From Mesorhizobium sp. M8A.F.Ca.ET.218.01.1.1 (GTDB lineage: Bacteria; Pseudomonadota; Alphaproteobacteria; Rhizobiales; Rhizobiaceae), in NCBI RefSeq assembly GCF_004791165.1, contig NZ_SRUZ01000009.1, positions 64,873 through 88,872 of the forward strand: a stretch of DNA of 24,000 bases, in the 5' to 3' direction. The notes below the pieces were generated by a model. That model saw only the letters and a program-made list of their open reading frames with translations. It searched no databases and was not told the DNA's origin. Shown in pieces: positions 2,633 through 20,896 of the stretch. Every line of letters starts with the position of its first letter. Position 1 is the stretch's first letter. A program made the position numbers and the translations under genes.

Positions 2633-2709
2633 ATTCAAGATGCTGAAAACGTGGAGGCATTCTCATCTCCTTCGGACCGTGTCAAAAGAATCCCATGAAA
2701 CATCCGCGT

Positions 2710-2736
2710 GCAGCAAGGCGATTGCTGCCTTTGGTT
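2710..2736 (+). terminator. Possible intrinsic terminator of the kinase/SDR operon
   Basis: 7-bp stem GCAGCAA (2710-2716) / TTGCTGC (2722-2728) with a 5-nt loop, followed by CTTTGGTT. It lies about 80 nt after the SDR stop. The T-tract is weak. Confidence 0.3.
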
Positions 2737-2788
2737 GATAAAGGCCCGACACGAGGTCGAACGGAGCAGGAACGTTATACGGCGCGCC

Positions 2789-3354
2789 TTAGCCCAACCG
2801 GAAGACGAAGCGACCTGAAGCCTTCCGGGAGACGTTGCTCGCTGCCCCAGGTGTGCCCCTGTCCGATCGACCATGCCGTCCGACCTTCATGCCTTCGTCA
2901 AAGCGTGCGGCATGGCGCTGCAGCGTCCGCAGGGAATAGCTGACCGCCGTGCCCTCCCAGTTCCGCGTTGGGTTGTCTGCTAGCTCGGACAGAGCGTCGG
3001 TGCGGGCAGTCGATTTGGCTGGATGCTGAAGCACTGGCCTCAGGTAATCGAGCCACCATGTGTGCTCTGCCGTCCTGCCGGTGATTGATTTCGAGTGGTC
3101 TCCAACGAGGGTTTGAGAGACCTTTAAGCGGTGCTGGTATTCGAGCGGCAGGGACGCGGAATTCACCTATATTGCTCCCCGGCGTTCCCGCCGCGCCGAC
3201 CATTGACCTTCCGCACTTCGAGCGGATTTTTTCGCCAGTGACGCCGACGAAGAGCGCGGTGAGCGACTTGTCGCCCAATGCCGACCAGCGCAGCAAACTC
3301 AACTGTGGGCAGCCACTCACTCATAGCTAGCAACCTGGCGTCGACGCGGGGCAA
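2789..3354 (-). pseudogene. MuA-like (Mu-type DDE) transposase, N-terminal DNA-binding part only; frameshifted and 3'-truncated
   Basis: Two ORFs in different frames abut at 3163-3166. Joined, they read MSEWLPTVEFAALVGIGRQVAHRAL..WRKNPLEVRKVNGRRGGNAGEQYR / VNSASLPLEYQHRL...SYSLRTLQRHAARFDEG..GRHGRSDRG. This follows the MuA N-terminal pattern as I remember it (W..xE.A.LPG...GW..R.R.G.KGG.A.EY...SLP) and the downstream RSDxG motif. No DDE catalytic core follows before the SDR gene. Confidence 0.6.
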
Positions 3355-3379
3355 TTCCTGAGAATTTTGCGGGGATATG

Positions 3380-3428
3380 CTACCTCGCGAACGTGTAGAC
3401 TATTTAGATCGTCCGAGACTACCTCGCG
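3380..3428. repeat. Direct repeat CTACCTCGCG x2
   Basis: Exact 10-mers at 3380-3389 and 3419-3428, with 39-bp periodicity, in non-coding DNA beside the transposase remnant. Confidence 0.6.
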
Positions 3429-3599
3429 GAGGCAATATCGGCGAGTGCGAGCGCCACTCGCTCGATGAGGGTTACCAAACCTGTCGCTGGAGGTTACGAA
3501 TGCGCGTGTTCGTTGGCCTTAGGTTCCCAATCGTGGCTGCAATAAGCTCAATCAAAACATCCCCTTAAGGCCAGTCGGGAATCGATTGTCGTCGGGGCA

Positions 3600-3636
3600 C
3601 ATTGGTAACCTGTTGTCCAAAGGGCATTGGTAACCT
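3600..3636. repeat. Direct repeat CATTGGTAACCT x2
   Basis: Exact 12-mers at 3600-3611 and 3625-3636 (25-bp spacing), each preceded by GGGCA / GGGGCA. The inverted partial GGTTACCAAACCTG lies at about 3469-3482. Confidence 0.6.
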
Positions 3637-3680
3637 CTTCGGGCGAAAGCGGCGGGATATCATCCACTTAGAAGTCCGGC

Positions 3681-3734
3681 CGACGACAGATAATTCTGGA
3701 CTCTTGCCCCTCACGACGACAGATAATTCCGGAC
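3681..3734. repeat. Direct repeat CGACGACAGATAATTCYGGAC x2
   Basis: 21-mers at 3681-3701 and 3714-3734 differ at one base and are 33 bp apart (about 3 helical turns). They explain the duplicated IICRR peptide in the spurious ORF 3668-4126. Confidence 0.7.
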
Positions 3735-3849
3735 GTCATACCAGTCTGCCATTTATGCGACTTTTGAGGCCCAAATGGTGAACACCAATGCCGTCCTTGT
3801 TGGCGCGGCGCCTCATCGATCGGACTTGTGCTCCCGCGGTGGGCCCTGA

Positions 3850-6264
3850 TCATGCCGCGACCGCTTGGTCCGGAGTGAAGACGTGGGGCAGGTAGTTCAT
3901 CAGCGTTTGGCCATCGGCATTTCGGCTGAGCTCGATGGTAATCAGCCGGTCGTTCTGGAACGCCGGGCTGAGCTCCAGCGAGAGATAATCGAACAGCGGC
4001 TTTTCGTGCACCGCGATAATGATCTGACGCTGCAGGTTTGATTTGGCCAGCATTCTGAGCAGTGCGGTGAACTGGGCAATATGGACCTCGTCCATGCTCT
4101 GCACGGGGTCGTCGATCACCAGCCAAGGGAGGTCGGGGGAAACCGAAAGATGTAGAGCGAGGAAAAGCGTGAGCGCGGCCGTGTTGAGATTGCCGGCACT
4201 CAGCATTGCGCGGGGATCGCCGCCCTTGCCGCCCGAGCGATACCAGGTCTCAAGCACCGCCTCTACCGGACCGCCATTGGTTTCGGGGACGGCAAAGGCG
4301 GGCACAAAAGGCTCTTCCGGCGCCAGCCGCACGAAGAGGTCGCGCCACACCCGGTTTAGCGAGCCGTTGAAGACTTTCCTGACAATGGCGGTCCGGGCTT
4401 CTCCCGCGCGCTTTGCCAGTTCGCGGGCGTCAAGAATCAGGCGGTCAGCGCGATCTTTCGCGGCATTCAGCCTGCCAAGGCGACCCTGAGCGGTTCCCGT
4501 TGCAATAACGACTGGTTGCCGTGAGGCATTGAGCCGCTGCACTTCAAGGGCGTTTCCCGCCATTTCGCGGCGGATCGTCTGGTTCGCGGTATAGATTTCG
4601 ACGAGGCGTGACGCCTCGGCGGCAAAGCGCGACAGAGCGGCTGCAATATCTTCGGTCGGGCCGAGAGGCGCCACACCGAGCTCCGTGCTGAAGCGCTCGA
4701 CCGACTGGCGCAAAGCGGTGCCGCCCTGGTCCTGGACGGCGAGATCTGAAAGCGCGCGGGAGGCCGCAGCGGCCTCACCCATCAGGCGTTGACCTTCCTC
4801 CACGTCGCTGATCATGCCGGCCAGTGACAGGTCCACTTCCTGCAACAGTGCGACGCGGGTCCGAAGCGCGTCTCGATTGGTGGCGTCGAGGCGTCGCCCT
4901 CGGACTTCGCCGAGCTCCCTCTCGGCGACGACCACTGTCGAAAGGGAAGAGGTCCGGTCGCGGCTTAGGGCCTGGAGCTGCCCGGCGACAGCGGTGAGCT
5001 CTGCTATCCGCGCAGAGACATGGGCCTGTAGCGGCACCTCCGAGGTCTCTTTGAAATTGCGGCCGCAAACCGGGCAGTCGTCGGTATGGATATGCGGCAG
5101 CACGCCGCTCAATGACTGGGCAAGGGCGCCGGCCTCGGATGCGAGGTTCGAGATTTGTTGCTCGAGCGCCTGTATGCGCGCCCGACCGCGTGTGACGGCG
5201 CCCTCATGATCGGCCTCGAGCTTGGCGTCGGCTGCGTCGTTGTCGAGAAGTTCCTGGCAACGCCGAAGTTCTTCCCGCACCGCTCTTGTCGCGGCGGCAT
5301 GGGCCGGCTGGGGCCCGCCGGCGCTCAACGACGGAAGGTCGGAGAACAAGGGCATGAGCCGTTCGAGCACGGCCTGAAGCGCGGCTCCCTTTGTCGCGGA
5401 CCATGCCGCGACCGCCCGGCCGGCGTTCTCGCTGCGCGGCTGCGCGGCGGCGCGATCGCGAGCAAGGTCTGTGCCGGCGATCTGCTGCCATTGCAAGCCA
5501 GCGGCCTCAAGCTCGCGGCGCACCGTCGTGAGCCTCAGGAGTTCGCTCTGCTCGGTCTCGCCGGCAGTTGGGCCGGTGGCGGGACCGTCGCCAACTGAGA
5601 CCAATCGATTCGATAGAGCGTCGTTCTGCTCTTCGAGCTGTCGGATCCTGACGTCGGTCTTCTCCAATTCGGCACCCAGGCGGTCACGTTCGCCCTCGAC
5701 CTGGGGAATGGTGTCCCTGGTCTCGCCATATCCCGGAACGCCGCTTCGCAGCCGCCGCACATCACCCGCATCATGCAGGCCATCGATGATGGCATCGAGG
5801 TGATCCAGGCCCAGCAAGTCCTTGACGAACTTGGTAAGGGCGGAATCCGAGCGCTTCGCGGAATCCTGATAGAGTTCGAGCAGGCGGCCCAGCGATGACT
5901 GCGCGAGGAAGCAGCGTTCGGCATAGAACCGGGCGAGATCCGGTCCGAGCAGCGCCTCGCCCTCTATCGCATTGGCGGTCACCTTGAGGCTGGCCTCATT
6001 GCGCTTGAGGCCACTCGTCTCAATTTTGAGCTCCGCGGACTTGGCGTCCTTGTGGACGAGGTGGGCTGCGTAGTCGGGATCGACCCGTTGGAGCGACGCG
6101 ACTTGGCCCGTCAGAGCCAGCTCGATGGCCGACAGCAGGCTTGTTTTGCCCGCGCCGTTTGCGCCGTGGATGAGGACGATGGGAGCGTCCAGCGGGACGG
6201 TGATGGTCCCCTTGATGCTGCGAAAATTTGTGAGGGTGATCGAACTCAACTGAGCAGCGCTCAT
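3850..6264 (-). CDS. Rad50/SMC-like ABC ATPase with long coiled coil and central zinc hook (LmuB-like / ABC-3C ATPase component)
   Basis: 804 aa. N-terminus ITLTNFRSIKG..., Walker A GANGAGKTS (nt 6139-6165), Q-loop region CFLAQSSLG. CPVC lies at aa 397-400 (nt 5065-5076), at the protein midpoint between helix-rich Ala/Leu/Glu/Arg segments. C-terminus has signature-like LSAGN, Walker B/D-loop WLVIDDPVQSMD and H-loop AVHEK. The ATG overlaps the upstream stop (ATGA at 6261-6264). Confidence 0.85.
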   Translation of the reverse strand: MSAAQLSSITLTNFRSIKGTITVPLDAPIVLIHGANGAGKTSLLSAIELALTGQVASLQRVDPDYAAHLVHKDAKSAELKIETSGLKRNEASLKVTANAIEGEALLGPDLARFYAERCFLAQSSLGRLLELYQDSAKRSDSALTKFVKDLLGLDHLDAIIDGLHDAGDVRRLRSGVPGYGETRDTIPQVEGERDRLGAELEKTDVRIRQLEEQNDALSNRLVSVGDGPATGPTAGETEQSELLRLTTVRRELEAAGLQWQQIAGTDLARDRAAAQPRSENAGRAVAAWSATKGAALQAVLERLMPLFSDLPSLSAGGPQPAHAAATRAVREELRRCQELLDNDAADAKLEADHEGAVTRGRARIQALEQQISNLASEAGALAQSLSGVLPHIHTDDCPVCGRNFKETSEVPLQAHVSARIAELTAVAGQLQALSRDRTSSLSTVVVAERELGEVRGRRLDATNRDALRTRVALLQEVDLSLAGMISDVEEGQRLMGEAAAASRALSDLAVQDQGGTALRQSVERFSTELGVAPLGPTEDIAAALSRFAAEASRLVEIYTANQTIRREMAGNALEVQRLNASRQPVVIATGTAQGRLGRLNAAKDRADRLILDARELAKRAGEARTAIVRKVFNGSLNRVWRDLFVRLAPEEPFVPAFAVPETNGGPVEAVLETWYRSGGKGGDPRAMLSAGNLNTAALTLFLALHLSVSPDLPWLVIDDPVQSMDEVHIAQFTALLRMLAKSNLQRQIIIAVHEKPLFDYLSLELSPAFQNDRLITIELSRNADGQTLMNYLPHVFTPDQAVAA

Positions 6265-6878
6265 TCCGAAGCTCCCTGTGTTAACTCTGGCCCAAGATCG
6301 ATGTCTTCTTCTGGTTCAATTTCTGCCTCGATGGCGGCGTTGAGAAGCTCGTGCAGATGTTGCTGGACGCCATCTGCGCCTTGGTCCGCGAAGGCAACCA
6401 GGCCGACGATATTTTGGTCGAGATCGGCGGATCTGCTGACGATCGAGTCTAGCGACTCCGCCGTGTCGCTGGTCGGTTCAGGCAACTTGAGCGGCAGCAG
6501 GACAGCCAGCCAGTTCTCCAGCAGAGCAGTTGTCGCTCCCTGTTCGGTCACACCGACGGGAAGCACACGGCAAACCTTGGTCATCGCATCAAGCGTGGCG
6601 GCGGAGGGTTTGGGCCCGACAAGGATCGTGGTCAGGGGACGTTTGGAGCGGGTGACGTCGAGCGCGCGCGCCACCCCTTCCACCTTGCGGAGGATCTTCT
6701 GTTCGGTGTCGAACGCCGTGTCAGCGACAAGGATGAGGTCGGGCGACGGGCTTTCGCCGACGAGGGCGGCTGGAAGATCGAACGATAGGCCGGCGATCGA
6801 CAGCGGGACTGACAGAGGGCGGTAACCCGCTTCCGAAAGCAGCGCGACGACCCCCTCGACTGGCGTGGCGCTGGTCAT
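6261..6878 (-). CDS. 205-aa protein of unknown function; sits where the middle component (LmuC-like) lies in an effector/middle/ABC-ATPase operon
   Basis: ATGA overlaps at both ends (6875-6878 and 6261-6264) indicate translational coupling. It has an acidic C-terminal tail (EAEIEPEEDIDLGPE). I recognise no family motif, so the call rests on position and size only. Confidence 0.55.
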   Translation of the reverse strand: MTSATPVEGVVALLSEAGYRPLSVPLSIAGLSFDLPAALVGESPSPDLILVADTAFDTEQKILRKVEGVARALDVTRSKRPLTTILVGPKPSAATLDAMTKVCRVLPVGVTEQGATTALLENWLAVLLPLKLPEPTSDTAESLDSIVSRSADLDQNIVGLVAFADQGADGVQQHLHELLNAAIEAEIEPEEDIDLGPELTQGASE

Positions 6879-8593
6879 ATCGCTGCCTCCGAACGAAACT
6901 GCTGCATGAGATCTGCCGCACTGGTCGCGTGCTGGAGCAGGTCGTAAATGCTGACCTCCCGCAATCCCAGCACGCCCGTCCGACCGGGTGAGCTTCGGGG
7001 CGAGCGGGGCATCGGCGGTGGCTTCTCTGCACTATAGACCAGGACGGCGTCCTCGTTGTCATCGATATGGCCATTCTGCTGCAGCCGGATGGCTGACCGG
7101 CCATTGGCCGCAAGGACAAGCTTAGTGCTTGCCGACGCAGTCACCACTTTCACCGCACCCGAGGCGGGATCAGCGGGATCACTTTCGGCTAGGGTCCAGG
7201 TGCCCTCCGCCACGCCAATACCAAGCAAACCGGCAAAGACCGCGATCTCCGGCAATCCGGATGAAGGGAGGGTCTGGTCAGCCGCAATCTGATGAAGCGG
7301 CAAGGGCGTTACAGGGTTGTAGCGGCGCGGGGCAACCCCTGCCCCCCCGTCCCGGAACATCATCATCGTGCGCGAGGCGTGGTCGACGAATTTGCGGACG
7401 AACTGCAGTCGATCGCCATTGTCGAGGGTCGCCAGGTGGTCCCGCAGTGCCACCACTCCCTGTTGCAGAGCCGCGCGCGCGGCGGGGTCGAGGGTACCCT
7501 GGACCGTGTCGACCATGACCTGCATCTTGTCGGCGATGACCGAGAGTACGAGCGCGAGCAAAAGCGGGTTGGCGTATGCTCTGACAAGCGACTGCTCGTT
7601 GATCTGGTCGCGGGTCGCCGCCGTATAGATCTGCGGATAGACGTTCTTGAGTAGTCCCTCCTGGTCGGCGCCGACCTGTTCTCCCGAGAAGACGAAGCTG
7701 GGCCTGTTTCCGGGCCAGGGCCAGCGCATCACTGATTCCGCCTTTGCGAAGAAGGCCTGGATATTGGAGTCCTGGGCCGATAGGCCCATCATGATGGTCG
7801 GCTTCGAAACGGCAATATCGAGCAGACGGTTGATCACGGCTTGATTTTCGGGTGCGGCGGCCCAACGGTTGATTTGCGAGTAGCGGCCGACAAGAAACGG
7901 CCTGTAGGTTCCCTCGTCGGCGACGGCCAACACTGCGCAGCCATGAAATTTGATGATCTGACCGGTAAGCTCCGGCTGACGAAGATCCTCGGCGCGAACG
8001 CAGACCACGAGCTTGGGAACGCCTCCCGTCAGTTCGGCAACAGCCTTCTCGACCAGTCCGTCCCAGTTCGCCGTGGCGATGCTAGACGCACTGCCTTCGA
8101 GAACTAGAATGCCCATACATAGATGCTCGACATCGGGTTCGATGGCGGGGTTCGCGAAGGTGGCGGGGACGCCCACGCCGTCCCACAGCAAATAGTCATC
8201 GGCCTTCCCGGCAACGGTGACGTCGAGCAGCCGAGCATAATTGTTGGTCAGCCGCGCGACAATGGCGGCCTGGTCCGGCCAAGCGGCGAAGCCAAGGGTG
8301 AAATCGACCCTTGCCCATTCGTCGGCCGACAGCGGGGCGAGGCCGAGGGCACGCTTGAGGGCTATGTTATAGGGACAGTTGGGGTTGGCCGGATCGCTCT
8401 GCTGGCGCAGAAACTCCATCACACGCACGATGATGTGCTTCAGGCCATCTACCCGTCCGAATGAGATGCCCGAACCAAGCCAAAAGGCATACTGGTCCTC
8501 GGCGATGCCCGTCGCGACGCTGCGAAAGGGACCATCGAGGATGTCGAGGGTTTGACGAACGGAAATCGTTGAAGCGCTTGGCGCAGCTGGCAT
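6875..8593 (-). CDS. SIR2-like (SIR2_2-type) NADase-family effector with a roughly 270-aa C-terminal domain of unknown function (LmuA-Sir2-like)
   Basis: 572 aa. FWLGSGIS (GSGIS aa 40-44, nt 8462-8476), ATANWD with N176 (nt 8066-8068), IKFHG with H217 (nt 7943-7945) and GLSAQD (aa 270-275) match the GAGIS / TTNYD / KxHG / GYSxxD pattern of prokaryotic defence SIR2 domains. It is the first gene of the 3-gene operon. Confidence 0.8.
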   Translation of the reverse strand: MPAAPSASTISVRQTLDILDGPFRSVATGIAEDQYAFWLGSGISFGRVDGLKHIIVRVMEFLRQQSDPANPNCPYNIALKRALGLAPLSADEWARVDFTLGFAAWPDQAAIVARLTNNYARLLDVTVAGKADDYLLWDGVGVPATFANPAIEPDVEHLCMGILVLEGSASSIATANWDGLVEKAVAELTGGVPKLVVCVRAEDLRQPELTGQIIKFHGCAVLAVADEGTYRPFLVGRYSQINRWAAAPENQAVINRLLDIAVSKPTIMMGLSAQDSNIQAFFAKAESVMRWPWPGNRPSFVFSGEQVGADQEGLLKNVYPQIYTAATRDQINEQSLVRAYANPLLLALVLSVIADKMQVMVDTVQGTLDPAARAALQQGVVALRDHLATLDNGDRLQFVRKFVDHASRTMMMFRDGGAGVAPRRYNPVTPLPLHQIAADQTLPSSGLPEIAVFAGLLGIGVAEGTWTLAESDPADPASGAVKVVTASASTKLVLAANGRSAIRLQQNGHIDDNEDAVLVYSAEKPPPMPRSPRSSPGRTGVLGLREVSIYDLLQHATSAADLMQQFRSEAAI

Positions 8594-8698: not shown

Positions 8699-9763
8699 CT
8701 ATTTCGGTGTGTCGGCGGCCGGAACATCTTTGTTGATCGTCGTCTGCAGCTTTTCGATGCGCGCAAGGATCTCATCGAACGAATAAGATTTCTCGTCGAA
8801 CATCATCGCCTGCATGGCTTGGTAGTCGGTGCGCAGGTCCTTTAGGCGATACTCGGCCGGCATCAGACGCAGGGTGCCCGAACGCGCGGTGTCATAGCTC
8901 GCCCAGCTCGATCGAAAGTACACGGCCTTGTGCCTGGCGACCTGCGCCAACATCTCGAAGTCGACAGCCGCCGCCTGCCCCTCGGCCGTGTCGAGAAGCA
9001 TCGCCACATCATAATAGTGGCGTGAAAAATACTGAGGGGTGGGAGAGTCTTCGGGACGGTGCGCTTCGGAGTGAAGCGCAGTGGCCTTCTCCCAGAAAGT
9101 CCTGCGCGCCGCCAGCACCGTGATGGTGCAATCCGGATTCTCGAAGAAGGTGGGGAAATCGTCAGCTGAATAGGGTCGGATGGTCTTCTGCTCGGTCGGC
9201 CAAGGATCGCCGCGTGCACCGAACTCCAGTTTGACGCGCGGAGTTATGTAGGTGACGCCTTGATAGTCCTGACCGGTCAGCGCGGCCGGGTAGTGAAAGT
9301 TCAGGGTCTGGGGGTCGTTGGCGTCGACCTCCAGCGACCAGTTGCCCTTGACCGGCTCGCCAAGTTGGACAGCGATCGCCTCTCGCAGGGCAGGAAGCAT
9401 GTTGTTGGCGATATGTTTTTCGACATCGGCCATGAGCGCATCGATGAGCTTGGCGGACTGCTTCTTGCTGATCCCTTCCCGCTCTGGATCCCGATCACCA
9501 TCATAGCCGAGGTCGGCACGATCGAATGAGAGGTCGATGTCCTCCGAAAAGCGTCGGATTGCACCATAGGCCTTGGAGAGAGAGGTGCCACCTTTGAAAA
9601 CCAGAGTGGGCGCATCGCCCTTCTGGAGTTCAAAGAGACGCTTCAAGGTCCAGCAAACCCAGAAGTCCTTCTCGATGATAATGCTGGCGACGCCGCGCAA
9701 GGCGCCGGACTCGCCGAAGACAGCCGCCCTATCGGACGCGTCCTGGCGAGCGAAGCTATCCAT
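8699..9763 (-). CDS. abiEii: AbiEii/AbiGii-family nucleotidyltransferase toxin (type IV TA / abortive infection)
   Basis: IIEKDFWVCWTLKRLF, then LVFKGGTSLSKAYGAIRRFSEDIDLS (the GS...DxD NTase motif typical of AbiEii). I place the start at ATG 9763 (MDSFARQ...). That start overlaps the abiEi stop by 8 nt (ATGGATAG). Confidence 0.9.
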   Translation of the reverse strand: MDSFARQDASDRAAVFGESGALRGVASIIIEKDFWVCWTLKRLFELQKGDAPTLVFKGGTSLSKAYGAIRRFSEDIDLSFDRADLGYDGDRDPEREGISKKQSAKLIDALMADVEKHIANNMLPALREAIAVQLGEPVKGNWSLEVDANDPQTLNFHYPAALTGQDYQGVTYITPRVKLEFGARGDPWPTEQKTIRPYSADDFPTFFENPDCTITVLAARRTFWEKATALHSEAHRPEDSPTPQYFSRHYYDVAMLLDTAEGQAAAVDFEMLAQVARHKAVYFRSSWASYDTARSGTLRLMPAEYRLKDLRTDYQAMQAMMFDEKSYSFDEILARIEKLQTTINKDVPAADTPK

Positions 9764-10385
9764 TGGCCGCGTCCGATCTGGTGTCCGCAATGGCGCGCAG
9801 CGTCGGGCGCATCCAGGCCGGGGCCTGAACGGCCGTCGACGCGAGCCTCTTCTTGTCGCTCGGCGACAGCTGGCGCGACGCGACGTGAACGATATCGGCC
9901 GCCCGTGACGGCCCCAGATGGCGTAGCGCCTGAACAACAGTCCCCGCCGCACTGCCCGGTGCGATGAGATGCTTGGGCGAAGCGTGGCGGAGATCGACGA
10001 TGCGTTTTCCGAGCACCACCCGACGGGATGGTCCATCCGTCAGGTATGAACTGCGGGCCGGAACCTGGGTCGATAGGCCGAGGACGTTCGCCGCGCGCGG
10101 GCCGGCGACCTGCACCTGAGAGCCTGTCTCTCTGGCCAGTGCCTGGGCGATGTCATCGGCCGCTGGAGAAAGGGGACCAAGCTTTGGATGCATTTTGGGG
10201 AAATCGTAAAGGCCGCGCGCGAGGCGACGGAGCCTGCCGCTCTTGACGAGGCGAGACAGGGCCTGATCGATCGCCGCCCGCGCAGCCAGGTCAAGGAAAT
10301 CGTTGGGCGTGAAAACGCTGCCGCGTCCGCTACTGCGGGCGCGCCTTACAATCCGATCTGGAGCTGACGTAACGGTCGTGTTCAT
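9756..10385 (-). CDS. abiEi: AbiEi-family antitoxin / transcriptional autoregulator
   Basis: 209 aa. Its N-terminal winged-helix-like segment (GSVFTPNDFLDL...ALSRLVKSGRLRRLARGLYDFP) is typical of AbiEi. It lies directly upstream of abiEii and overlaps it. Confidence 0.85.
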   Translation of the reverse strand: MNTTVTSAPDRIVRRARSSGRGSVFTPNDFLDLAARAAIDQALSRLVKSGRLRRLARGLYDFPKMHPKLGPLSPAADDIAQALARETGSQVQVAGPRAANVLGLSTQVPARSSYLTDGPSRRVVLGKRIVDLRHASPKHLIAPGSAAGTVVQALRHLGPSRAADIVHVASRQLSPSDKKRLASTAVQAPAWMRPTLRAIADTRSDAANG

Positions 10386-10416: not shown

Positions 10417-10779
10417 TGCAAGGCCTACGTGATACGCGAAGTTGGGCGTTTCAAGCGAGTTTGCCGGCCGCGGTCCGCGAAAGGACCGGCGTCTGGGTTT
10501 TGTCGATCGATGACCGTTATGACGTGACCTTAGCCCCTCTCCAAGGGTTCCTTGTACGCCCTCCCATCGATTGCCATAAGTTTGGCCACTCTTCATCCCC
10601 AGACCGCTCGATGATGGTTCATTACTCGGTCGGTTGCATGTTGACCAAGCTCCGACGTTTGAATTTCACCTGGTCCCCTTTGGGCCACCGTCCGTAACTC
10701 TCTTATTCAAAACCCGTGCAGCCAATTGACACCTGCTTGGACAAACAGCACAACCGACGGCTGGGCTTGGAAACTTCTT

Positions 10780-12552
10780 ATGTGGTCCGATTCGGATACC
10801 GACATCGACTTTTTGAACTATTCGGAAGTTGCGGAGGTTGTTGTAGACCTTCTCGCCGACCCGAAATTGTTGCCACTTTCTGTCGGCGTGTTCGGCGGCT
10901 GGGGAATCGGAAAGTCAACTACACTTCGCCTTGTTGAGCGCGAATTGGATAAGGCACCGGAACGCTATCTCGTCATCAAGTTCGATGCTTGGATGTATCA
11001 GGACTTTGATGACGCGCGCGCCGCACTGATGAGTGTGATCTCCGGTGCGCTTGTAAAGGCGGCCCCGCCTGCCCTCAAGGACAGAGCGAAATCCTTGATC
11101 GGGCGCGTGAACAAACTACGGTTTTTGGGCGTGGCGCTGGAGGCCGGCGCCTGGGCAATGGGTGTGCCCACCTTCGGGGCGATTTCCAAAGGTGTGACAG
11201 CCGCTGGCGCGCTTTTTTCGGGTTCGCAAGAGGACACGAACCTCGAAGCCGTCAAGGATGCCGCCTCTGACGTCCAGTCACGCGGTGCATCGCTCTTGCG
11301 CGAGGCGGAAGAGAAGGGTCCGCCCGATGAGATCGACGCATTTCGTGCCGAATTCAAAGCTGTTCTCCAGGACCTCGGGAAAACGATGGTCGTCTTCATC
11401 GACAACCTCGACCGCTGTTTGCCCCGAAACGCCATAGAGACCATGGAGGCCGTGCGGCTTTTCCTGTTCATGCCCAACAGTGCATTCGTCGTAGCCGCCG
11501 ACGAGGACATGATCCGACATGCCGTCAGTCAACACTTCAACAGCCCCTCGCAGCGCCACATCACCGACTATTTGGATAAGCTGATCCAGGTCCCGGTAAG
11601 GGTGCCAAGGGCGGGCATACAGGAGGTCCGCGCATACCTTATTCTGCTGCTTGCGAGCCGGTCCGATCTGAATGACGGAGCCGTTGAAAAACTGCGGCTC
11701 TATCTCATCGACCGCCTCCGGACCTCATGGAAGGATGATGGCGACTTCACGATCAACGAGATGCTGACCCAGTCCGGCGTGCAGGCGTCGAAAGAGCTGG
11801 CGACTGCATGGGAGATGGCCGACAGGATGGCGCCGATCCTGGCCCTGTCGCCCGGCGTCGTCGGCAACCCCCGCACCGTGAAGCGCATGCTCAACGTGGT
11901 GAGGATGCGGGCGAACGTTGCTCGTCGCCGTGCAATGCCTATCGACGAGGCGATGATCACCAAATTGGCGTTGTTCGAGCGTTGCACCGACATCGATGCG
12001 ACGGAAGAGCTTCATAATCTCATCAACGCCAGCCCGCGCGGAAAGCCCGCCATCCTGGCCAACCTTGAACATGCCAAGCCCGGCGTAACAGTCGCTGACT
12101 TGCCTGAGAAGTGGTCGAAACATGCTCCATTTCTGATGGAATGGGCGAAGCTGCCGCCTGGGCTGGCTGGTGTTGATCTGCGGCCTGCAGTGTACCTCGC
12201 CCGGGAGACTGTCCCGCTTCGCATGAGATCCGGTTCTCTCGCCGGCGGCGCTGCAAAAGCCGTCGAAACACTCCTTCAGATCCGGTCCGTGTCTTCGCCA
12301 GCCGCCAAGGCGGCGTTGGACAGCCTGCAGCCGGGGGACATGATCCCCGTCATGGAAGCGGTCATCGAGGTGATGAGAAAAGACTCTGATTGGTCGCGAG
12401 CACGGATGGATTTTCGTGGAGCCACATTGGTTGCCGACAGATCCGCAGCCGCGGCCGAATTGCTGAACCGCTTTTTCAGATCGCTGCAGCTTCCGAAGAC
12501 CCCGGGATGGGTCTCAACGATGCTCAAAGACAAGCCGTGGTGGGAGGAGTGA
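10780..12552 (+). CDS. qatA: QatA: KAP-family P-loop NTPase
   Basis: MWSDSDTDIDFLNY...SVGVFGGWGIGKSTTL (Walker A, nt 10894-10920), VIKFDAWMYQD, and Walker B VVFIDNLDRC, the KAP hallmark. The tracked ORF starts at TTG 10726. ATG 10780 fits the family N-terminus better. Confidence 0.85.
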   Translation: MWSDSDTDIDFLNYSEVAEVVVDLLADPKLLPLSVGVFGGWGIGKSTTLRLVERELDKAPERYLVIKFDAWMYQDFDDARAALMSVISGALVKAAPPALKDRAKSLIGRVNKLRFLGVALEAGAWAMGVPTFGAISKGVTAAGALFSGSQEDTNLEAVKDAASDVQSRGASLLREAEEKGPPDEIDAFRAEFKAVLQDLGKTMVVFIDNLDRCLPRNAIETMEAVRLFLFMPNSAFVVAADEDMIRHAVSQHFNSPSQRHITDYLDKLIQVPVRVPRAGIQEVRAYLILLLASRSDLNDGAVEKLRLYLIDRLRTSWKDDGDFTINEMLTQSGVQASKELATAWEMADRMAPILALSPGVVGNPRTVKRMLNVVRMRANVARRRAMPIDEAMITKLALFERCTDIDATEELHNLINASPRGKPAILANLEHAKPGVTVADLPEKWSKHAPFLMEWAKLPPGLAGVDLRPAVYLARETVPLRMRSGSLAGGAAKAVETLLQIRSVSSPAAKAALDSLQPGDMIPVMEAVIEVMRKDSDWSRARMDFRGATLVADRSAAAAELLNRFFRSLQLPKTPGWVSTMLKDKPWWEE

Positions 12553-12561
12553 CGAAAGGGT

Positions 12562-13323
12562 ATGGGGACATCGTCGTCGTCTAAGGGGCGCAAGAACAAC
12601 AGCCCGATGGTTCCACCGCATGCCGATGCCAATCCAGGCCAACCGGTACCTGCGCCCGAGGGACAGCGGTTCAGGGGCTTTCGTACGGAGTTTGGCCGGG
12701 CAGTGGCTGGCGCCGGCGGTGGATCTCTGTCTGCCGCGCTAGGCAAATATGCGCGTGACGCAACAGGGGGTGCCACAGTCGGACCCCGAAGGTTTGGCAC
12801 TGCATACCAAGCCGGCGGCGCGCTTGTCGGGCTGCTCAACGATCTTCAACAAGGCGGCTCTGGCGCCGAGTTCGCGGGAATAGACCTATCGACGCTGAAT
12901 GGACGCCCCCTGGCCGAGGCGGTTCAGGCGATTGCGCAAGCACTCGCCCCTGAGAATGCGGATGCCGACCTGATCCGCATAGCGGTACAAGAGGCGCTGG
13001 CCGAAGTGTTGCCCGATACCGCGTCATTCGAACCCGCCGATCTTGATGGCGACGTGTTGATCGCAGTCCTGATCGAGTTTTTCACGAGGATCATCTTTCA
13101 GGACATTGTCAGCGACGCCGGGGACGCCTGGAACAAGGCTCCTGACCAGGATCGCACGATCGAGGCGGAGAACGAACTTTTTGACATTATCCATGCCGCG
13201 GTCGACAGGCACCTTTCGCCTGCTCTGGCCAACGGGATGCAGAACATGACGCGGGCGCAAGTGGAGGCACAGGAACGTCGCGCAATGGACGCGATCTGGG
13301 CCGAATGGGAGGGAAATGAGTGA
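12562..13323 (+). CDS. qatB: QatB: unknown-function partner protein of the Qat system
   Basis: 253 aa. RBS AAGGG at 12556-12560. Gly/Ser/Pro-rich, low-complexity N-terminal region of about 90 aa, then a helical acidic domain. Identified by its position between the KAP NTPase and QueC-like genes. The stop overlaps the qatC GTG (GTGA at 13320-13323). Confidence 0.7.
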   Translation: MGTSSSSKGRKNNSPMVPPHADANPGQPVPAPEGQRFRGFRTEFGRAVAGAGGGSLSAALGKYARDATGGATVGPRRFGTAYQAGGALVGLLNDLQQGGSGAEFAGIDLSTLNGRPLAEAVQAIAQALAPENADADLIRIAVQEALAEVLPDTASFEPADLDGDVLIAVLIEFFTRIIFQDIVSDAGDAWNKAPDQDRTIEAENELFDIIHAAVDRHLSPALANGMQNMTRAQVEAQERRAMDAIWAEWEGNE

Positions 13324-14630
13324 CGCTGTGCCGCTTCTTTCTGGACAAGGAGACTTTTCCCGCCGACTGCCCTCCCAACGAATTGCACGTTCTCCTTTAC
13401 GGAGGATCAGCCCCAATTCCGGGAGCCATCGCCATCGGGAACCAGGTCCGAGACCTCTTTTTGCGTTTCGGTGTGCAGCCGTCCGCGACAGCCGTTGATT
13501 TTGTGTCCATCGCGCTCGCGGTCACCGCGGCCGACACATTCGTTTTAAGAGATGACGCTGCGGACAGCTGGAGCAGGGATATCGAGATCCACCTGCCGCT
13601 GCGAGCACCCGACACATGGAATATGGTAAAGTCCCAACTGCAGCGCCTGCTCGGCTTTCTGAGCGGTGACCAATGGCGTTTTCACTTTGAAGGCGGCGGC
13701 GAGGCTCCTCCCCTTCCCTCGGTCATCCGGCAGCATGACAGACGGATAGACCTCCTTGCCGGCGATCTCGTTTCGCTTTTCTCAGGAGGTCTGGACAGCA
13801 CCGTCTCTACGTTCCGGCTCATCGAGGAGAGCGCCCGCCCGGTCCTGGTTTCTCATGCCTACACCGGCGACAAATCCGTCCAGAACGCCATTGTCGCCCG
13901 CTTACCGACAGCCCTTCAGCACGTCTCGGTAAATGCCTGGCCAAACTCGGAGCGCACGTCCGAGATATCGATGCGTTCCAGAAGCTTCCTCTTCATAGCC
14001 ATCGCCGCTTTGGTTTGTGACGTGAAATCAAGGCTGGTCGGCGGGCGCCCGATCGCACTGCAAGTTCCCGAGAACGGCCTGATTGCGTTGAACGCGCCAT
14101 TAACGCCGAGACGGATCGGGTCCCATAGCACGCGCACAACGCATCCCTTTTTCTTGGATGGTGTCCAAGCGATTTTCGGCGCCGTTGGCATCCCGGCCAC
14201 GATCGACAATCCGTTTGCAACCTGGACAAAAGGGCAAATGGTGCGATCGGTGAGCGGGAGCGAACTCTTTCAGGCCATTGCCTCAGAAACAGTCTCTTGC
14301 GGAAAGTGGAAGCGAGAAGGCCAACAATGCGGACGCTGCGTGCCCTGTCTCATCAGACGGGCGTCTCTCTACGAAGGTGACGTGGATGACCAGACCTCTT
14401 ACCAGTCTGCCAGCCTCGTTGAGGTGATGAAAGTCGAAGACACCCGAGACGACCTGGTCGCGATGCTCTCGGCCGTCAAGCGCTTGGACAGTGCCAATGC
14501 CGACACGTGGGTTGCTCAATCAGGGCCTATGCCTGCCGATGTCGATCGCCGATCGGCCCTTGTCGATGTCCATCGACGCGGTCTAATGGAGGTCGGCAGA
14601 TACCTCGCGGACAGTGGCTTCAAGATGTGA
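13320..14630 (+). CDS. qatC: QatC: QueC-like PP-loop ATPase with a roughly 150-aa N-terminal extension
   Basis: PP-loop SGGLDS (nt 13782-13799). C-terminal Cys cluster CGKWKREGQQCGRCVPC, as in the QueC zinc site. GTG start. Confidence 0.9.
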   Translation: MTLCRFFLDKETFPADCPPNELHVLLYGGSAPIPGAIAIGNQVRDLFLRFGVQPSATAVDFVSIALAVTAADTFVLRDDAADSWSRDIEIHLPLRAPDTWNMVKSQLQRLLGFLSGDQWRFHFEGGGEAPPLPSVIRQHDRRIDLLAGDLVSLFSGGLDSTVSTFRLIEESARPVLVSHAYTGDKSVQNAIVARLPTALQHVSVNAWPNSERTSEISMRSRSFLFIAIAALVCDVKSRLVGGRPIALQVPENGLIALNAPLTPRRIGSHSTRTTHPFFLDGVQAIFGAVGIPATIDNPFATWTKGQMVRSVSGSELFQAIASETVSCGKWKREGQQCGRCVPCLIRRASLYEGDVDDQTSYQSASLVEVMKVEDTRDDLVAMLSAVKRLDSANADTWVAQSGPMPADVDRRSALVDVHRRGLMEVGRYLADSGFKM

Positions 14631-15361
14631 TCGATTTTCATTGCCATCTCGACCTCTATCGGTATCCCGAGCTTGCGGTCGAAGATGCGGACAAATCAGG
14701 GGCTTATGTCCTCTGCGTGACCACGACGCCAAGGGCGTGGAAGTCAACGTCGGCATTGTGTGCGAACCGGCCACGGATCCGCACAGCCTTGGGGCTGCAC
14801 CCCGAACTCGCCCATGAGCGCGAAGGTGAGTTACCCCTTTTCAAGCATTTTGCCTCTGAGACCAGATATTTTGGCGAAATCGGCCTGGATGGCTCCGAGC
14901 ATTTGCGAAGCGCGAAGGCGGCTCAAGAGCGCGTCTTCACTGCCATATTGGCCACAGCAGCAGACCTCGGCGGCAAGATCCTGTCCATTCACAGCCGCCG
15001 CGCCGCTGACGAGGTCCTTGATTGTCTATCCAAACACTCCGCTGCCGGCACTCCCATCTTGCATTGGTTCAGCGGATCTCAAAGACAGCTCAGACGGGCT
15101 GTCGACCAGGGCTGCTGGTTCAGCTGCGGGCCCTCCATGTTGAAGTCAGAGAACGGAAAGGCGATTGCAAGGTCCTTGCCGCGCAACCGCGTGCTCACCG
15201 AAACCGACGGTCCATTCGCTCTCGAAGGCAGTCGGCCGCTTCAGCCAAAGGATTCCTGGCAAGCATTGAAGATGCTCTCCGACATCTGGCAAATCCCCGA
15301 AGCGGAAGCGGCTGCAATTCTCAAACACAATCTTGTGGCGCTGACAACGGGCAAGCCGTAG
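14627..15361 (+). CDS. qatD: QatD: TatD-family metal-dependent hydrolase/DNase
   Basis: (V/M)IDFHCHLD at the N-terminus (the TatD HxH motif), then GEIGLD and SIHSR. GTG 14627 overlaps the qatC stop (GTGA). The tracked ATG at 14507 would overlap qatC by 124 nt and add a Cys/Arg-rich non-TatD leader. Confidence 0.85.
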
Positions 15362-15570
15362 GGCCTGCATCAAGTCGGAAAGGCCAGCACGGGCCATCGT
15401 CGCGACGTCGTTGGGCAACGCAATCTGATGCTGGAAAGGCTCGATCAATGACCGACGGCGTTGAGATGCTCCGGCTGCGCTTGGTGAGCCATGACAGACA
15501 TCGCTGTGTGGCGCATAGCTGTGGACGTGAACGGAAAATCCTTGTGTAATAGAAAGAGGGGGACAGCACC

Positions 15571-17535
15571 ATGGACAAGGAAAGACCAAACCAGGCCGTC
15601 CTGTTCGATGACCGTTTCCTGGACAAATATGCAGGGCCGATCATTTCCGATCCTGCAGTGGCCATCGTTGAACTTGTCGCGAATGCTTGGGACGCCTACG
15701 CGACCAAGGTGGATATAGTCTGGCCCAAGCGCAGCCAAGACATCCGATTTTCCATCACTGACAACGGCAAAGGGATGACCCCGGCGCAGTTCGAGAGGCG
15801 TTGGAATACGCTTGACTACAATCGCCTTGCCGACGAGGGCACCAAGTCGGGGCCGCCCGAGGATCTGTCAGACTCCCCTCCCCGAAACCCGTATGGCCGC
15901 AACGGTAAAGGCCGCCATGCGGCCTTCAAGTTCTCCGACCCTTACACGGTGCGCACCTGGCGGGACAGCGTCGAAACCGTCTACGAAGTTCGTCGCGGTG
16001 TCACCCAACCCTTCGACGTCATGGTGATCAACTCCCGCGACAAGGTCATTGGGCATGGTACGGAGATAATGGCGACCGCCTCCGATGGCACTTCCATGGG
16101 CGCGGACACAGCCCGCGAGATCATCGGCACGCGCTTTCTCGCGGACCCGAATTTCGTGGTCTCGCTCGACGGAACTTTGGTCACATTCGATGACATCCCG
16201 ACGCGCAACATCCAGAAGGTCAACGTCGACGTGCCCGGCTTTGGGGTGGTCCAGATCGTAATGATCGATAGCCAGAAAGCCGATCGGACCACGAGGCAGC
16301 ACGGCATTGCATGGCGCGTGAATTCGCGGCTTGTCGGAAACCCGGGCTGGGTCGGGTTCGACCATGAGCGTATCCTCGACGGGCGGAGCACCGAAGCGAA
16401 ACGCTTCCAGTTCATCGTCTCGGCAGACATCCTCGAGAATGCGGTGCAGCCGGACTGGAGCGGGTTCCTTCCCAATGACCCGGCATGGCAGGCCACCCGG
16501 CCCGCCGTGCATGCGCAGATCAAGCAGTACCTCTCCACCTTCTCTGCTGATCGCCGCCGTGAGGCGAAACACTCCGTCAAGGAACAGCTGGTCAAGACGG
16601 TGCGGCAGCTACCTCCCGTTGGGCGCGAACGCTGGAATCAGTTCGTGGATGAGGTGATCGATAATTGCCCCTCGATCTCGACGGAAGAGATCGGCAAGGT
16701 CGCGGGCATCCTCGCCAATCTTGAACTGAGCACGTCGAAATTCAGCCTAGTAGGGAAGCTGAACGAGCTGCAGCCGGGCGATCTCGATGCGCTGTACGAA
16801 CTCCTCGACGACTGGACTCTCAGGCTCGCGAAGGACGCCCTCGATGAAATCCAGACGCGCCTGAAGCTGATCAAGGACTTGGATAAGAAGCTTCGCGACG
16901 ACACCATGGACGAGGTCGGCGACCTGCAGCCGCTGTTCGAGCGATCGCTGTGGGTGTTCGGCCCTGAGTTTGAGAGCCTCGAGTTCACAAGCAACAAAGG
17001 CATGACGGAGGTCATTCGCAAGATATTTGGGTCGAATGAAACGGGTAGCAGGCAGCGACCCGATTTCGTGATGCTGCCCGATGGCAGCGTTGGGCTTTAT
17101 AGCCGCGACGCGCATGATCTCGGACATGAAGTGGATGGTGTGTCCCGCCTGGTCGTGGCCGAGATCAAGAAGCCCGGCGTGGGCATAGGCTCCGAGCAGA
17201 AAGATCAGGCGTGGCGGTATGTGAAGGAGCTGAGGAGCAAGGGGCTTCTGACCGAAGCGGCCGTGACGACCTGTTACATCCTCGGCTCGAAGATCGATGC
17301 CGCCGAGGGCGGGAGTCGAACCGAGTGGGACGGACGCGTTACCATCATCCCGATGACCTACAATACTTTCATCCGTAGAGCGGAAAAGCGAATGCTCGGC
17401 CTTCGCGAAAGGCTAAAGGAGGCCCCGTTCCTGAAGGAACACGGTGTTGATGGCGATGCCTTCATCACGCCGCCACCGGATCCACAGCGGGACCTGCTAG
17501 CCGCTGCCGGCGCAGGTGCTTCGGCACACCCTTAG
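15571..17535 (+). CDS. MORC-like GHKL ATPase fused to a C-terminal Shedu/DUF4263-like PD-(D/E)xK nuclease core
   Basis: 654 aa. RBS AGAGGGGGA at 15555-15563. Bergerat-fold motifs: N-box ELVANAWDA (nt 15670-15696), G1 DNGKGM (aa 64-69), G2 [11 protein letters not shown] (aa 109-119). C-terminus: [22 protein letters not shown] (D498, nt 17062-17064), VVAEIKKP (E531/K533, nt 17161-17169), QAWRY (Q546), [13 protein letters not shown]. Confidence 0.8.
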
Positions 17536-17542
17536 GATCAGC

Positions 17543-18977
17543 ATGGCAACGTTCGGCCCACGATTTGGAGAGGACGACCTAGGCACCTTGTCCATCGAGG
17601 AACGAGGACGAGGCCTCGTGGAGGTGTTTTTCCAGCCTTCAGCGACGCGACTAAAGATCGCGCACCGCGAGGGGGACCCAACGACCCGCGTCCTGCTTAT
17701 AAAGTTCGAGGCTAGGACGGACACGACCACGCTCTATCCCGTCAATACCATGCCCACGTCCGCGAGCTTCCTGACGCCTAAGCACGATCCCATTGTTTCG
17801 ATCGAGCTGGTACTGAAGAATGGGTTCGCCCACATGGTCGATGATTATGACGGAGCCGAACATTTCGTCGTGCCGAGCACCCTCGATGACGTGCAGATGT
17901 ACCTAGAGGAGTGCATGCCCTCGGGGTTCACTAAAAACCCGAATTTCGGGCTTGGGCTCGATCGCACGCTTTCATTCATCACCCAGGCGCTGTCACAGAT
18001 CGACGGTATCAAGCAATTGCGCCTGACCGACGAGAAGACCCTCGAGGTCTCTCGGTCGGCCGACGGCAAGACCTTTGAGATGGGCTATCGCCTTTTCGAC
18101 GAGTTGCGCCGCGGGGCCAATCGTTTTGATGACAAGGCGCGCGCCTCGAGCAGGAAGAAGAAGCACCAGGCCGCCTACACCAATCTTCTCACCAGGCTCG
18201 ACCGTACAAAGTTTCCGCTGAAGCTGTTCGAGCGCGCACCTGATGATCTAGCGGAAGTGATCGGCGAGACTATTGTAGACGCCCGCCTTTCGGAAAAAGA
18301 CCGGGCGGCCGTTGTCAGCCTCGCCGGCGCAACGGTCCGCAAATCAATCAAAACCCAGCGCGCCGGGCTCGTAAAACTTCATGACGAGATTGAACTTGCT
18401 TCCCTCGATGAGCTGATAGTCCATATGGAAACGCAGTTCGCCGCGAGGGCCACCGAGCCGCAATGGCAGAAGCTGTTCGAGGCCAACCCTTTTATCCTGG
18501 ACATGGCATTCAACGTGCCGGTGCTTTTGCTGCAGGGGCAGGCCCATGTCGGCGGGAAGATCCTCGACGGGTCAGGCGAGAAGATCGCCGATTTCCTGTT
18601 CACCAACCAGCTGACCGACAGTATTGCTATTTTGGAGATCAAAACGCCCGGCATGGACCTGGTCAGCAAGAAGCAATACCGGGGCGGAGTCTTGGCGCCC
18701 TCCCCCGAGCTCGTCGGCGCGGTCGTGCAGACCCCGCGACCAGATCGACAAACTGCGTAGCGATATCTACCGAATTAAAGCGCTTAATCCCCAGCATAAG
18801 CTGGAGTCCTACGGCATCAAAGGTGTGGTGCTGGCGGGCACAATCCCGGATACCGAGCGGAAGCGTTCCTTCGAACTGTATCGCAACAGCTTGTCCGGGC
18901 TGTCTATCATCACCTTCGATGAGCTGCTAGCGAAGCTGAAATCCTTGCGCGAGCTCCTGTCGGCGAAGCCGGCATAG
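17543..18977 (+). pseudogene. sduA: Shedu-type (DUF4263) nuclease with an unknown N-terminal domain of about 300 aa; reading frame broken by a 1-nt frameshift near 18732-18737
   Basis: ATG 17543 is preceded by AGGA (17535-17538). Frame A reads EPQWQKLFEANPFILDMAF, IADFLF (D, nt 18590-18592), ILEIKTP (E/K, nt 18635-18643) and GAVVQ (Q, nt 18728-18730), then stops at 18758-18760. Frame B continues DQIDKLRSDIYRIK...GVVLAGT...SFELYRNSLSGLSIITFDELL to 18977. The span of 1435 nt equals 3n+1. Confidence 0.75.
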
Positions 18978-19035
18978 CGGCATGGCGCGGACCCTCTGCA
19001 ACGCGATAAGAGGGACCCTTGGTGTCAACGCAGAG

Positions 19036-20780: not shown

Positions 20781-20848
20781 GATGAATCATGACGGCGCTT
20801 TTCGCAACGGAAATAGGCAAAAAGCGCTGTACCTGTAGGCAACACACA

Positions 20849-20877
20849 ACGAATGATAATCTTGCATTATCGTTCGT
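20849..20877. promoter_or_regulatory. Imperfect palindrome in the divergent DUF1403/recombinase intergenic region; candidate recombinase core site or operator
   Basis: ACGAATGATAAT (20849-20860), CTTGC spacer, ATTATCGTTCGT (20866-20877). 11 of 12 arm positions are complementary. Confidence 0.4.
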
Positions 20878-20896
20878 GTTGGTCTTTATAGAGGAA

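Follow-up and report, generated by a model that had tools for sequence, protein, structure and literature searches.

Background

Lamassu defense systems have been divided into a short and a long type (Haudiquet, Chakravarti et al., PNAS 2025, PMC12663957). According to this study the LmuB ATPases of the short type are about 600 amino acids (aa) long, with a Walker B motif of the form hhhhD[Q/S/T/E] and with none, one or two CxxC motifs; those of the long type are about 800 aa long, have a Walker B motif of the form hhhhDD and always a single CxxC, and are nearer to SbcC. The LmuC proteins of the long type are described there as longer, with an unstructured linker that leads to an additional short domain, and with similarity to SbcD's C-terminal part, and the C-terminal domain of the long-type LmuA as more complex, with helices, a conserved acidic loop and a beta-sheet. 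Sir2 is among the long-type effectors, the Sir2 domains of long and short Lamassu having been acquired independently, and the LmuC and LmuA C-terminal-domain families are considered too divergent for sequence methods. Here we analyze a three-gene operon from Mesorhizobium sp. M8A.F.Ca.ET.218.01.1.1 (assembly GCF_004791165.1, contig NZ_SRUZ01000009.1), coding for a SIR2-domain protein, a small middle protein and a Rad50-like ATPase, in a stretch of 24,000 nucleotides (nt) that spans positions 64,873 to 88,872 of the contig and is hereafter termed the window. We identify the operon with good confidence as a long-type Lamassu (ABC-3C) system with a SIR2 effector, its identity with the published 'long Sir2' subtype being judged from the description of that subtype. 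It is thus not a new kind of system but one of a kind that was described computationally between 2022 and 2025.

Operon organization and the LmuB-like ATPase

The three genes lie on the minus strand and are joined by two ATGA overlaps (Table 1), which were read directly together with the open reading frames (ORFs) and agree with an earlier annotation of this DNA made from the sequence alone (hereafter the first-pass annotation). The overlap between the SIR2 gene and the middle gene would couple their translation, and Shine-Dalgarno-like sequences (GGAGG for the middle gene and GGGAG for the ATPase gene) are present 7-9 nt 5' of the start codons.

Table 1. Coordinates of the operon, its motifs and its neighbors in the window
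Feature	Position (nt)	Residues	Strand	Basis or remark
SIR2 gene (LmuA-like effector)	6875..8593		minus	572-aa ORF
SIR2 NADase domain (predicted)	7589-8593	1 to ~335	minus	Pfam SIR2_2; AlphaFold2 (AF2)/Foldseek
N176 codon (ANWD motif), predicted catalytic Asn	8066..8068	176	minus	invariant in 42 homologues
H217 codon (KFHGC motif), predicted catalytic His	7943..7945	217	minus	invariant in 42 homologues
C-terminal docking-type domain of SIR2 protein	6878-7588	~336-572 (~240 aa)	minus	AF2 model
ATGA overlap, SIR2 stop/middle-gene start	6875-6878		minus	read directly
Middle gene (LmuC-like)	6261..6878		minus	205-aa ORF
ATGA overlap, middle-gene stop/ATPase start	6261-6264		minus	read directly
ATPase gene (LmuB-like, long type)	3850..6264		minus	804-aa ORF
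Walker A GANGAGKT	6142..6165	34-41	minus	read from sequence; orthologue alignment
CPVC zinc-hook motif, arm midpoint	5065..5076	397-400	minus	invariant in 21 orthologues
ABC signature LSAGN	4189..4203	688-692	minus	S689, G691, N692 invariant
Walker B WLVIDD (hhhhDD), then D-loop PVQSMDE	4108..4125	714-719	minus	D718, D719, P720 invariant
H-loop H753 (AVHE)	4006..4008	753	minus	invariant
AbiEi/AbiEii type IV toxin-antitoxin pair	8699-10385		minus	directly upstream of operon; PADLOC/Pfam
QatABCD, complete	10726-15361		plus	divergent from AbiE/Lamassu block; PADLOC
GHKL-type ATPase (654 aa, HATPase_c_3) and Shedu SduA	15571-18760		plus	SduA PADLOC 1.4e-102
DUF1403 protein and tyrosine recombinase (phage-integrase family)	19749-22120		minus (DUF1403), plus (recombinase)	right island edge

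The product of the last gene is a full ATP-binding cassette (ABC) ATPase, as the first-pass annotation had recognized: Walker A, Q-loop (Q122), signature, Walker B and H-loop are all present and vary little or not at all among 18-21 orthologues, which measure 803-818 aa as against 804 aa here. In Pfam, the SMC_N model extends over both parts of the split head (residues 6-758), and AAA_23 is found in the N-terminal half. Walker B follows the pattern [WC]L[VIL][IL]DD across 21 orthologues, and its second aspartate, which replaces the catalytic glutamate, may slow hydrolysis. Between the two halves of the head, the alignment-averaged hydrophobicity displays a 3.5-residue periodicity from about residue 169 to 616, delineating a heptad-periodic arm of about 450 aa and bearing out the coiled-coil-like stretch noted previously. 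The ratio of this periodicity to background is about 4-30 in most segments of the arm vs 1-3 in the heads, and it drops at proline- and glycine-rich breaks (about 225-240, 301-320 and 521-540), reaching 2.5 in the segment 225-280. This pattern suggests that the arm would fold as an antiparallel coiled coil.

The arm contains the only CxxC of the protein, a CPVC that occupies the center of all 21 orthologues examined, without variation. The proposal that it forms a Rad50-style zinc hook is supported by profile comparisons: the Pfam model Rad50_zn_hook weakly matches residues 394-409 (E=0.014), positions 386-462 of the NCBIfam model Rad50_Sulf, which comprise the hook region, align with residues 363-433, and a profile of the ATPase family matches the Rad50 hook structures 6zff and 1l8d (E=0.005-0.009). 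Rad50 heads and hooks are the best solved relatives of this profile within the Protein Data Bank (PDB), where it does not detect, at E<=0.01, the short LmuB from the Vibrio complex of known structure.

Among the PADLOC models the best match of the ATPase is LmuB (PDLC03859; 117 bits, E=3.4e-34), which covers residues 186-761, i.e. the arm and the C-terminal head. Three further LmuB models match it, LmuB leads all other families by 15 orders of magnitude, and the other ABC families (mad3, PbeC, DndD, PtuA and GajA) match the Walker A region only. The PADLOC search of the window, which had been suggested as a check, thus yielded LmuB as the best match of the ATPase, along with AbiE, Qat and Shedu as neighbors. 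The ATPase is clearly LmuB-affiliated, and its length, its hhhhDD Walker B and its single central CPVC are those given for the long type. The Lamassu/ABC-3C architecture proposed in the first-pass annotation is further upheld by the gene order (effector, small middle protein, ATPase) and by the LmuA-type architecture of the effector, in which a SIR2 domain is combined with a docking-type domain.

Two ABC-3C loci provide a closer comparison. A hidden Markov model (HMM) of the ATPase family scores their long ATPases at 50-52 bits, collinearly in both halves of the head, and E. coli SbcC at 13.6 bits. The first of these loci, from the Catenovulum adriaticum plasmid pCadTS8_1 (L027), codes for an effector combining Cap4 with CTD1 (PADLOC LmuA, 3e-25), an MComp1 protein and an ATPase of 789 aa that has CPTC at 427, the sequence LIDDPVQTMDE and the same top PADLOC model (PDLC03859, 2.7e-61). 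The second, from IMG/VR (UViG_3300017589_000185; L037), codes for an effector with CTD1, an MComp1 protein and an ATPase of 791 aa that has CPYC at 426 and DDPVQxMD. Both were assigned to the ABC-3C partner families by Pfam, and the NCBI Prokaryotic Genome Annotation Pipeline (PGAP) annotates the Catenovulum locus likewise. The present operon shares with these MComp1/CTD1 ABC-3C loci (the families of Krishnan et al. 2020 in Pfam) the ATPase length, a central CPxC, the hhhhDDP motif and the gene order; they differ in their middle protein, which is MComp1, and in their effector, which carries Cap4 in the first and an N-terminal domain with no Pfam match in the second. The first-pass annotation had associated the Walker B/D-loop of the ATPase with RloC/PrrC-type (AAA_13-like) ATPases; since the ATPases of both these loci have DDPVQxMD, it is the form found in long LmuB rather than an RloC signature, and that association does not hold.

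The short Lamassu or DdmABC systems (Vibrio cholerae Vc-Cap4; PDB 9NY5, 9NYG) resemble the operon in their SMC-like sensor, small LmuC and effector with a docking C-terminal domain. Their other features are absent here, namely an LmuB of about 600 aa that often lacks a zinc hook, a Walker B of the form hhhhD[QSTE], a helical-bundle C-terminal domain and a Cap4 nuclease, and the operon is not of the DUF3732/DdmC-like short type. To this extent the 'divergent branch' suggested in the first-pass annotation is justified, as it also is by the failure of PADLOC and Pfam to recognize the partner proteins; the branch itself, however, appears to be the published long Lamassu clade.

Two side observations concern these ATPases and their loci. 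In the IMG/VR locus the effector gene (4713-6269) codes for a clear CTD1 after a 220-aa N-terminal domain for which Pfam gives no match, and is flanked by two serine recombinases. Plasmids of Rahnella, Polaromonas and Vibrio cholerae (IncC pNDM) carry stand-alone genes of 880-890 aa labeled 'AAA family ATPase' (L025, L026 and L028), the products of which have CPAC at about 370 and are 24-28% identical to the N-terminal 168 residues of the ATPase. These genes have no SIR2 or middle gene annotated beside them and code for a different Rad50-like plasmid protein.

The SIR2 effector protein

The SIR2 catalytic pattern previously read in the first gene is supported by Pfam, where SIR2_2 matches residues 171-291 with 26.7 bits (gathering score 24.5) and is likewise matched by 23 of 23 SIR2-family proteins. 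In 42 aligned homologues, extending down to 32% identity, the residues G40-S41-G42, N176-W177-D178, K215/H217-G218-C219 and G270-L271-S272/Q274-D275 are invariant. An AF2 model built from 34 sequences is confident (predicted local distance difference test score, pLDDT, 85.9; predicted template modeling score 0.88), and its leading Foldseek matches in the PDB are exclusively defense NADases, all with probability 1.00: KomBC (E=3.8e-6), DSR2 (1.5e-5), ThsA (2.1e-5), the SPARSA SIR2-APAZ protein (2.7e-5) and SIR2-HerA (1.5e-3). Sirtuins of the classical deacetylase kind follow with scores that are worse by 3-4 orders of magnitude. On this model, the protein confidently carries the SIR2 fold of the defense-type NADases with their conserved asparagine and histidine, the fold on which the first-pass annotation had made its reading of the gene depend. 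It would accordingly be expected to act as an NADase, with N176 as a predicted catalytic residue by analogy with the SIR2 NADases of the ThsA/DSR2 type. The defense SIR2 NADases (ThsA, DSR2, SIR2-HerA, SPARSA, Avs5 and KomBC) share with it the fold, the catalytic asparagine and histidine and a predicted abortive infection through depletion of nicotinamide adenine dinucleotide (NAD+); they differ in their sensor modules, which include SLOG, a tail-tube-binding domain, HerA, prokaryotic Argonaute and STAND.

The C-terminal region, in which the first-pass annotation had seen an uncharacterized domain, is a structured domain of about 240 aa with no match in PDB, Pfam, NCBIfam or PADLOC. In the AF2 model it comprises helices (341-463), a beta-sheet (467-548) and, at its end, two more helices, and it bears a conserved acidic loop, NGHxxDxxDA (507-516); helices, sheet and acidic loop are as described for the C-terminal domain of long LmuA. 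In addition it has a basic loop, RSPRxxPGRTG (530-540), in which R530, S531, G537, R538, T539 and G540 are invariant. This is the most conserved disordered loop of the domain, exceeding the acidic loop in conservation.

The closeness of the ATPase to Rad50 raises the question of whether the operon might instead code for a housekeeping SbcCD/Rad50-like repair complex with a regulatory sirtuin deacetylase, or for an anticodon-nuclease ATPase of the RloC/PrrC type. The Rad50 heads and hooks are indeed the closest solved structures, sharing the split ABC head, the (here predicted) antiparallel coiled coil and the CxxC zinc hook, PGAP attaches the Gene Ontology term 'double-strand break repair', and the C-terminal head has a sub-threshold match to AAA_13. 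Nevertheless, compared with Rad50-Mre11 and SbcCD the operon codes for shorter arms, has an aspartate for the Walker B glutamate and offers a SIR2 effector in place of the nuclease, there being no gene for an Mre11/SbcD nuclease. Its SIR2 domain groups with the defense NADases rather than with the deacetylases, SbcC scores poorly against the ATPase family HMM, and the distribution is sporadic and on mobile elements. As for RloC/PrrC, AAA_13 attains 33.2 bits where its gathering score is 36, its match being confined to the C-terminal head, and by Pfam the ATPase ends at that head with no anticodon-nuclease domain, on which grounds this candidate was rejected. Of the Pfam families that the first-pass annotation had proposed to search, SIR2_2, SMC_N and AAA_23 were thus recovered and AAA_13 stayed below threshold. 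We consider a housekeeping or anticodon-nuclease role exceedingly improbable.

The middle protein

The 205-aa middle protein, in which the first-pass annotation could place no motif, has no match in Pfam, NCBIfam or PADLOC, and the same is true of its family members. This family is sizable: one search returned 493 relatives, and a profile search of 1.84 billion representatives gave 466 clusters at 50% identity, with nearly all members 185-205 aa long and about 190 aa being typical. The AF2 model (pLDDT 77) consists of an alpha/beta domain (1-127), a disordered linker (128-142), a helical hairpin (143-187) and an acidic disordered tail. In this layout a main domain is connected through an unstructured linker to a short helical one, which resembles the description of long LmuC. 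A Foldseek search of the PDB with this model gave only weak matches (E>=5e-3, TM-score <=0.38), to restriction-endonuclease-fold and receiver-like or generic alpha/beta proteins. Residues D47, R71, D74, S78, R80 and R104 are conserved across the family; they form no nuclease motif, and we read them as an interaction surface. The acidic tail (aa 188-205, window positions about 6264-6317) and the basic loop of the SIR2 protein (aa 529-541, about 6971-7009) might form a charge-complementary contact, or might contact LmuB.

Conservation of the three genes as a unit

A scan of genomes seeded on the middle protein recovered 18 loci from alpha-, beta- and gamma-proteobacteria. The complete trio is present in the same order in 16 of them, the remaining two being a decayed copy and a contig end, and in most of the complete loci the end coordinate of the SIR2 gene is the start coordinate of the middle gene, such that the overlapping junction is mostly kept. 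Mesorhizobium intechi is the nearest match at the species level, the amino-acid identity of the three proteins being 87-94%, and across the genome loci identity declines for the three together, from about 90% to about 42%. In each of the four plasmid loci inspected (in Agrobacterium, Rhizobium and Brucella) there is a SIR2 gene and a small ORF upstream of the ATPase gene, with ATPase identity down to 37%. A further scan, of metagenomes, was seeded on the most distant subclade of middle proteins, which are about 28-30% identical to the 205-aa protein. Each of the 28 loci with usable flanks displays the order full-length SIR2 gene (with both domains), middle gene and ATPase gene as far as the contig reaches, all three being reached in 25. 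The middle gene always lies between the other two in both scans. Given that the whole trio is conserved in dozens of unrelated contigs, chance is excluded; the three genes constitute a unit with obligate co-occurrence, the absence of which the first-pass annotation had named as fatal to its proposal.

A decayed copy, from Rhizobiales bacterium AFS048116 (UBWZ01000023.1, 4284-6786), has its SIR2 gene in four frames, a middle gene without its first 24 codons and 59 remaining ATPase codons; an AbiEii fragment lies about 5 kb downstream of it.

Comparison with cataloged partner families

The published description of the long Lamassu Sir2 subtype matches the operon in the LmuA-LmuC-LmuB order, in the layouts of all three proteins and in the defense-island context. 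A difference is that in the C-terminal domain of the effector it is a basic loop that stands out as the most conserved of the disordered ones. Several results nonetheless weigh against the assignment. Firstly, the LmuA and LmuC models of PADLOC 2.0.0 match neither the SIR2 protein, nor the middle protein, nor their plasmid homologues at E<=10, and the LmuC models find none of 60 diverse middle proteins. Secondly, no ABC-3C MC or CTD family of Pfam is matched at E<=0.05 by any of the 64 middle proteins or the 23 SIR2 proteins searched, and hhalign comparisons of the middle protein with MComp1 and SbcD and of the C-terminal domain with CTD1 are negative. Thirdly, the published SbcD-like similarity of long LmuC is not reproduced here by hhalign or Foldseek. 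Fourthly, swapping of effectors was not seen in this clade: no middle protein or C-terminal domain was found with another effector in the genome and metagenome loci. Finally, in the literature we found no long Lamassu with a Sir2 effector that had been tested experimentally or solved structurally. These sequence and profile negatives lower our confidence only modestly, because the PADLOC LmuC models likewise fail on the MComp1 protein annotated in the Catenovulum locus, which leaves the LmuC negative with little weight, and because LmuC is too divergent for such detection (PMC12663957). PGAP, for its part, names MComp1-type systems explicitly and labels the trio 'SIR2 family protein' (or 'hypothetical protein'), 'hypothetical protein' and 'AAA family ATPase'.

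These results could be accommodated in two other ways. One is that the middle protein pairs with the SIR2 protein's C-terminal domain as uncataloged partners, exclusive to SIR2, on a long LmuB chassis, with the alpha/beta domain of the middle protein being a degenerate restriction-endonuclease-like or receiver-like domain rather than one derived from SbcD. We regard this as unlikely, if worth keeping in view: were it true, SIR2 would have been wired to a Rad50-like sensor independently of the other Lamassu, and docking and activation could have another geometry than in the short Lamassu of known structure. The other goes further, in positing a separate SIR2- and Rad50-containing defense system that merely resembles Lamassu, in which a long LmuB-like ATPase independently recruited an unrelated adaptor and docking domain. 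The partners would then be analogues rather than homologues of LmuC and of the C-terminal domain of LmuA, and architecture and activation could both be different. This proposal draws on the lack of any sequence or profile similarity of the two partners to the cataloged LmuA, LmuC, MC and CTD families, on their strict association with SIR2 in more than 45 loci, and on the independent acquisition of Sir2 by long and short Lamassu. Against it, the ATPase is LmuB-like, with its length, hook position and DDPVQxMD as in the ABC-3C ATPases, the published divergence of the partner families would hide homologues from sequence methods, and the gene order, protein sizes and two-domain layouts fit the description of long Lamassu, such that the distinction is in part one of naming. 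We therefore judge a separate system to be quite improbable, and continue with the operon as a long-type Lamassu.

Proposed mechanism

The short Lamassu Vc-Cap4, in which a monomeric effector is sequestered and oligomerizes upon the sensing of DNA ends, offers a mechanistic template. By analogy with its structures and with the defense SIR2 NADases, we propose that the LmuB-like ATPase would dimerize via its heads and/or its apical CPVC hook, a Zn2+ ion probably being shared by two hooks, and that this dimer would act as a Rad50/SbcC-like sensor of foreign DNA, recognizing double-stranded DNA ends, palindromes or replication intermediates of phages or plasmids. Both the middle protein and the SIR2 protein's C-terminal domain may dock on the ATPase heads and the base of the coiled coil, with the SIR2 protein being held as an inactive monomer. 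DNA sensing, gated by ATP binding and hydrolysis, would then free or rearrange the effector, and the freed SIR2 protein would oligomerize and hydrolyze NAD+, resulting in the arrest or death of the infected cell.

The operon would be a clean model for how a Rad50-like zinc-hook sensor switches on an effector that is not a nuclease. The cassette family is large and tightly co-evolving, with about 470 middle-protein clusters (at 50% identity) on proteobacterial chromosomes, plasmids and conjugative elements. As PADLOC 2.0 (2023), Pfam and NCBIfam recognize only the ATPase and the SIR2 domain, such loci can be under-called in censuses of defense systems that draw on these libraries. The system as such would hardly surprise a specialist; the partner proteins, however, lie outside the Pfam and PADLOC libraries searched.

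Genomic context and mobility

The operon sits in a defense island within the window, together with AbiE, Qat and Shedu systems (Table 1). The left end of the island lies at about 2650-3850, beside genes for an FGGY kinase and a short-chain dehydrogenase/reductase, the DUF1403 and tyrosine recombinase genes lie at its right edge, and no tRNA is present in the window; the whole block from 3.8 to 22 kb may be one integrated element. In Rhodoferax an integrated conjugative element carries the orthologous trio, next to which are BrxR, a TIR protein and an MmeI-type restriction-modification enzyme; another genome has only the three genes, inserted between housekeeping genes; the operon is present on many rhizobial plasmids; and an orthologue with 44% ATPase identity is found on an IMG/VR contig. 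The operon thus behaves as a mobile defense cassette.

This mobility bears on whether the operon might be primarily a module for plasmid competition or elimination, triggered by incoming plasmid DNA, as in the case of DdmABC of Vibrio cholerae. Conjugative plasmids and integrative elements carry many of the copies, next to type IV secretion genes, and the Lamassu DdmABC acts on plasmids. Such activity is, however, compatible with an anti-phage role too, and the neighbors in the window are phage-defense systems; we accordingly give little credence to plasmid elimination as the primary function, and favor defense against phages or plasmids by a long-type Lamassu as set out above.

The following minor observations concern the neighbors. 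AbiEii is matched in PADLOC with E=2.6e-108, and its antitoxin matches DUF6088/AbiEi_4. The longest AbiEii ORF is 445 aa, with the HMM match starting at residue 92 and the NCBI gene call being 354 aa, on which account its first ~90 codons, rich in arginine and proline, are probably untranslated. The PADLOC E-values for the Qat genes are 3.9e-214 (QatA), 5.8e-68 (QatB), 2.3e-113 (QatC) and 1.4e-89 (QatD). The gene for the GHKL ATPase overlaps the start of SduA by 20 nt, and the pair has the appearance of a Shedu variant made up of two genes, SduA and a partner ATPase. In the Rhodoferax ferrireducens locus (CP138198.1), the region directly downstream of the trio (13853-20579) codes for a BrxR-like WYL regulator, a TIR_2 protein, a 510-aa protein of no assigned function, the MmeI-type enzyme and a DEAD helicase.

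Just past the ATPase stop codon in the window is a non-coding stretch with two pairs of short direct repeats (3600-3639 and 3681-3734). One pair consists of two copies of CATTGGTAACCT(G/C)TT at a spacing of 25 nt and the other of two copies of CGACGACAGATAATTC(T/C)GGAC at a spacing of 33 nt; the same stretch contains an imperfect inverted repeat of 23 nt (3573-3595/3680-3702).

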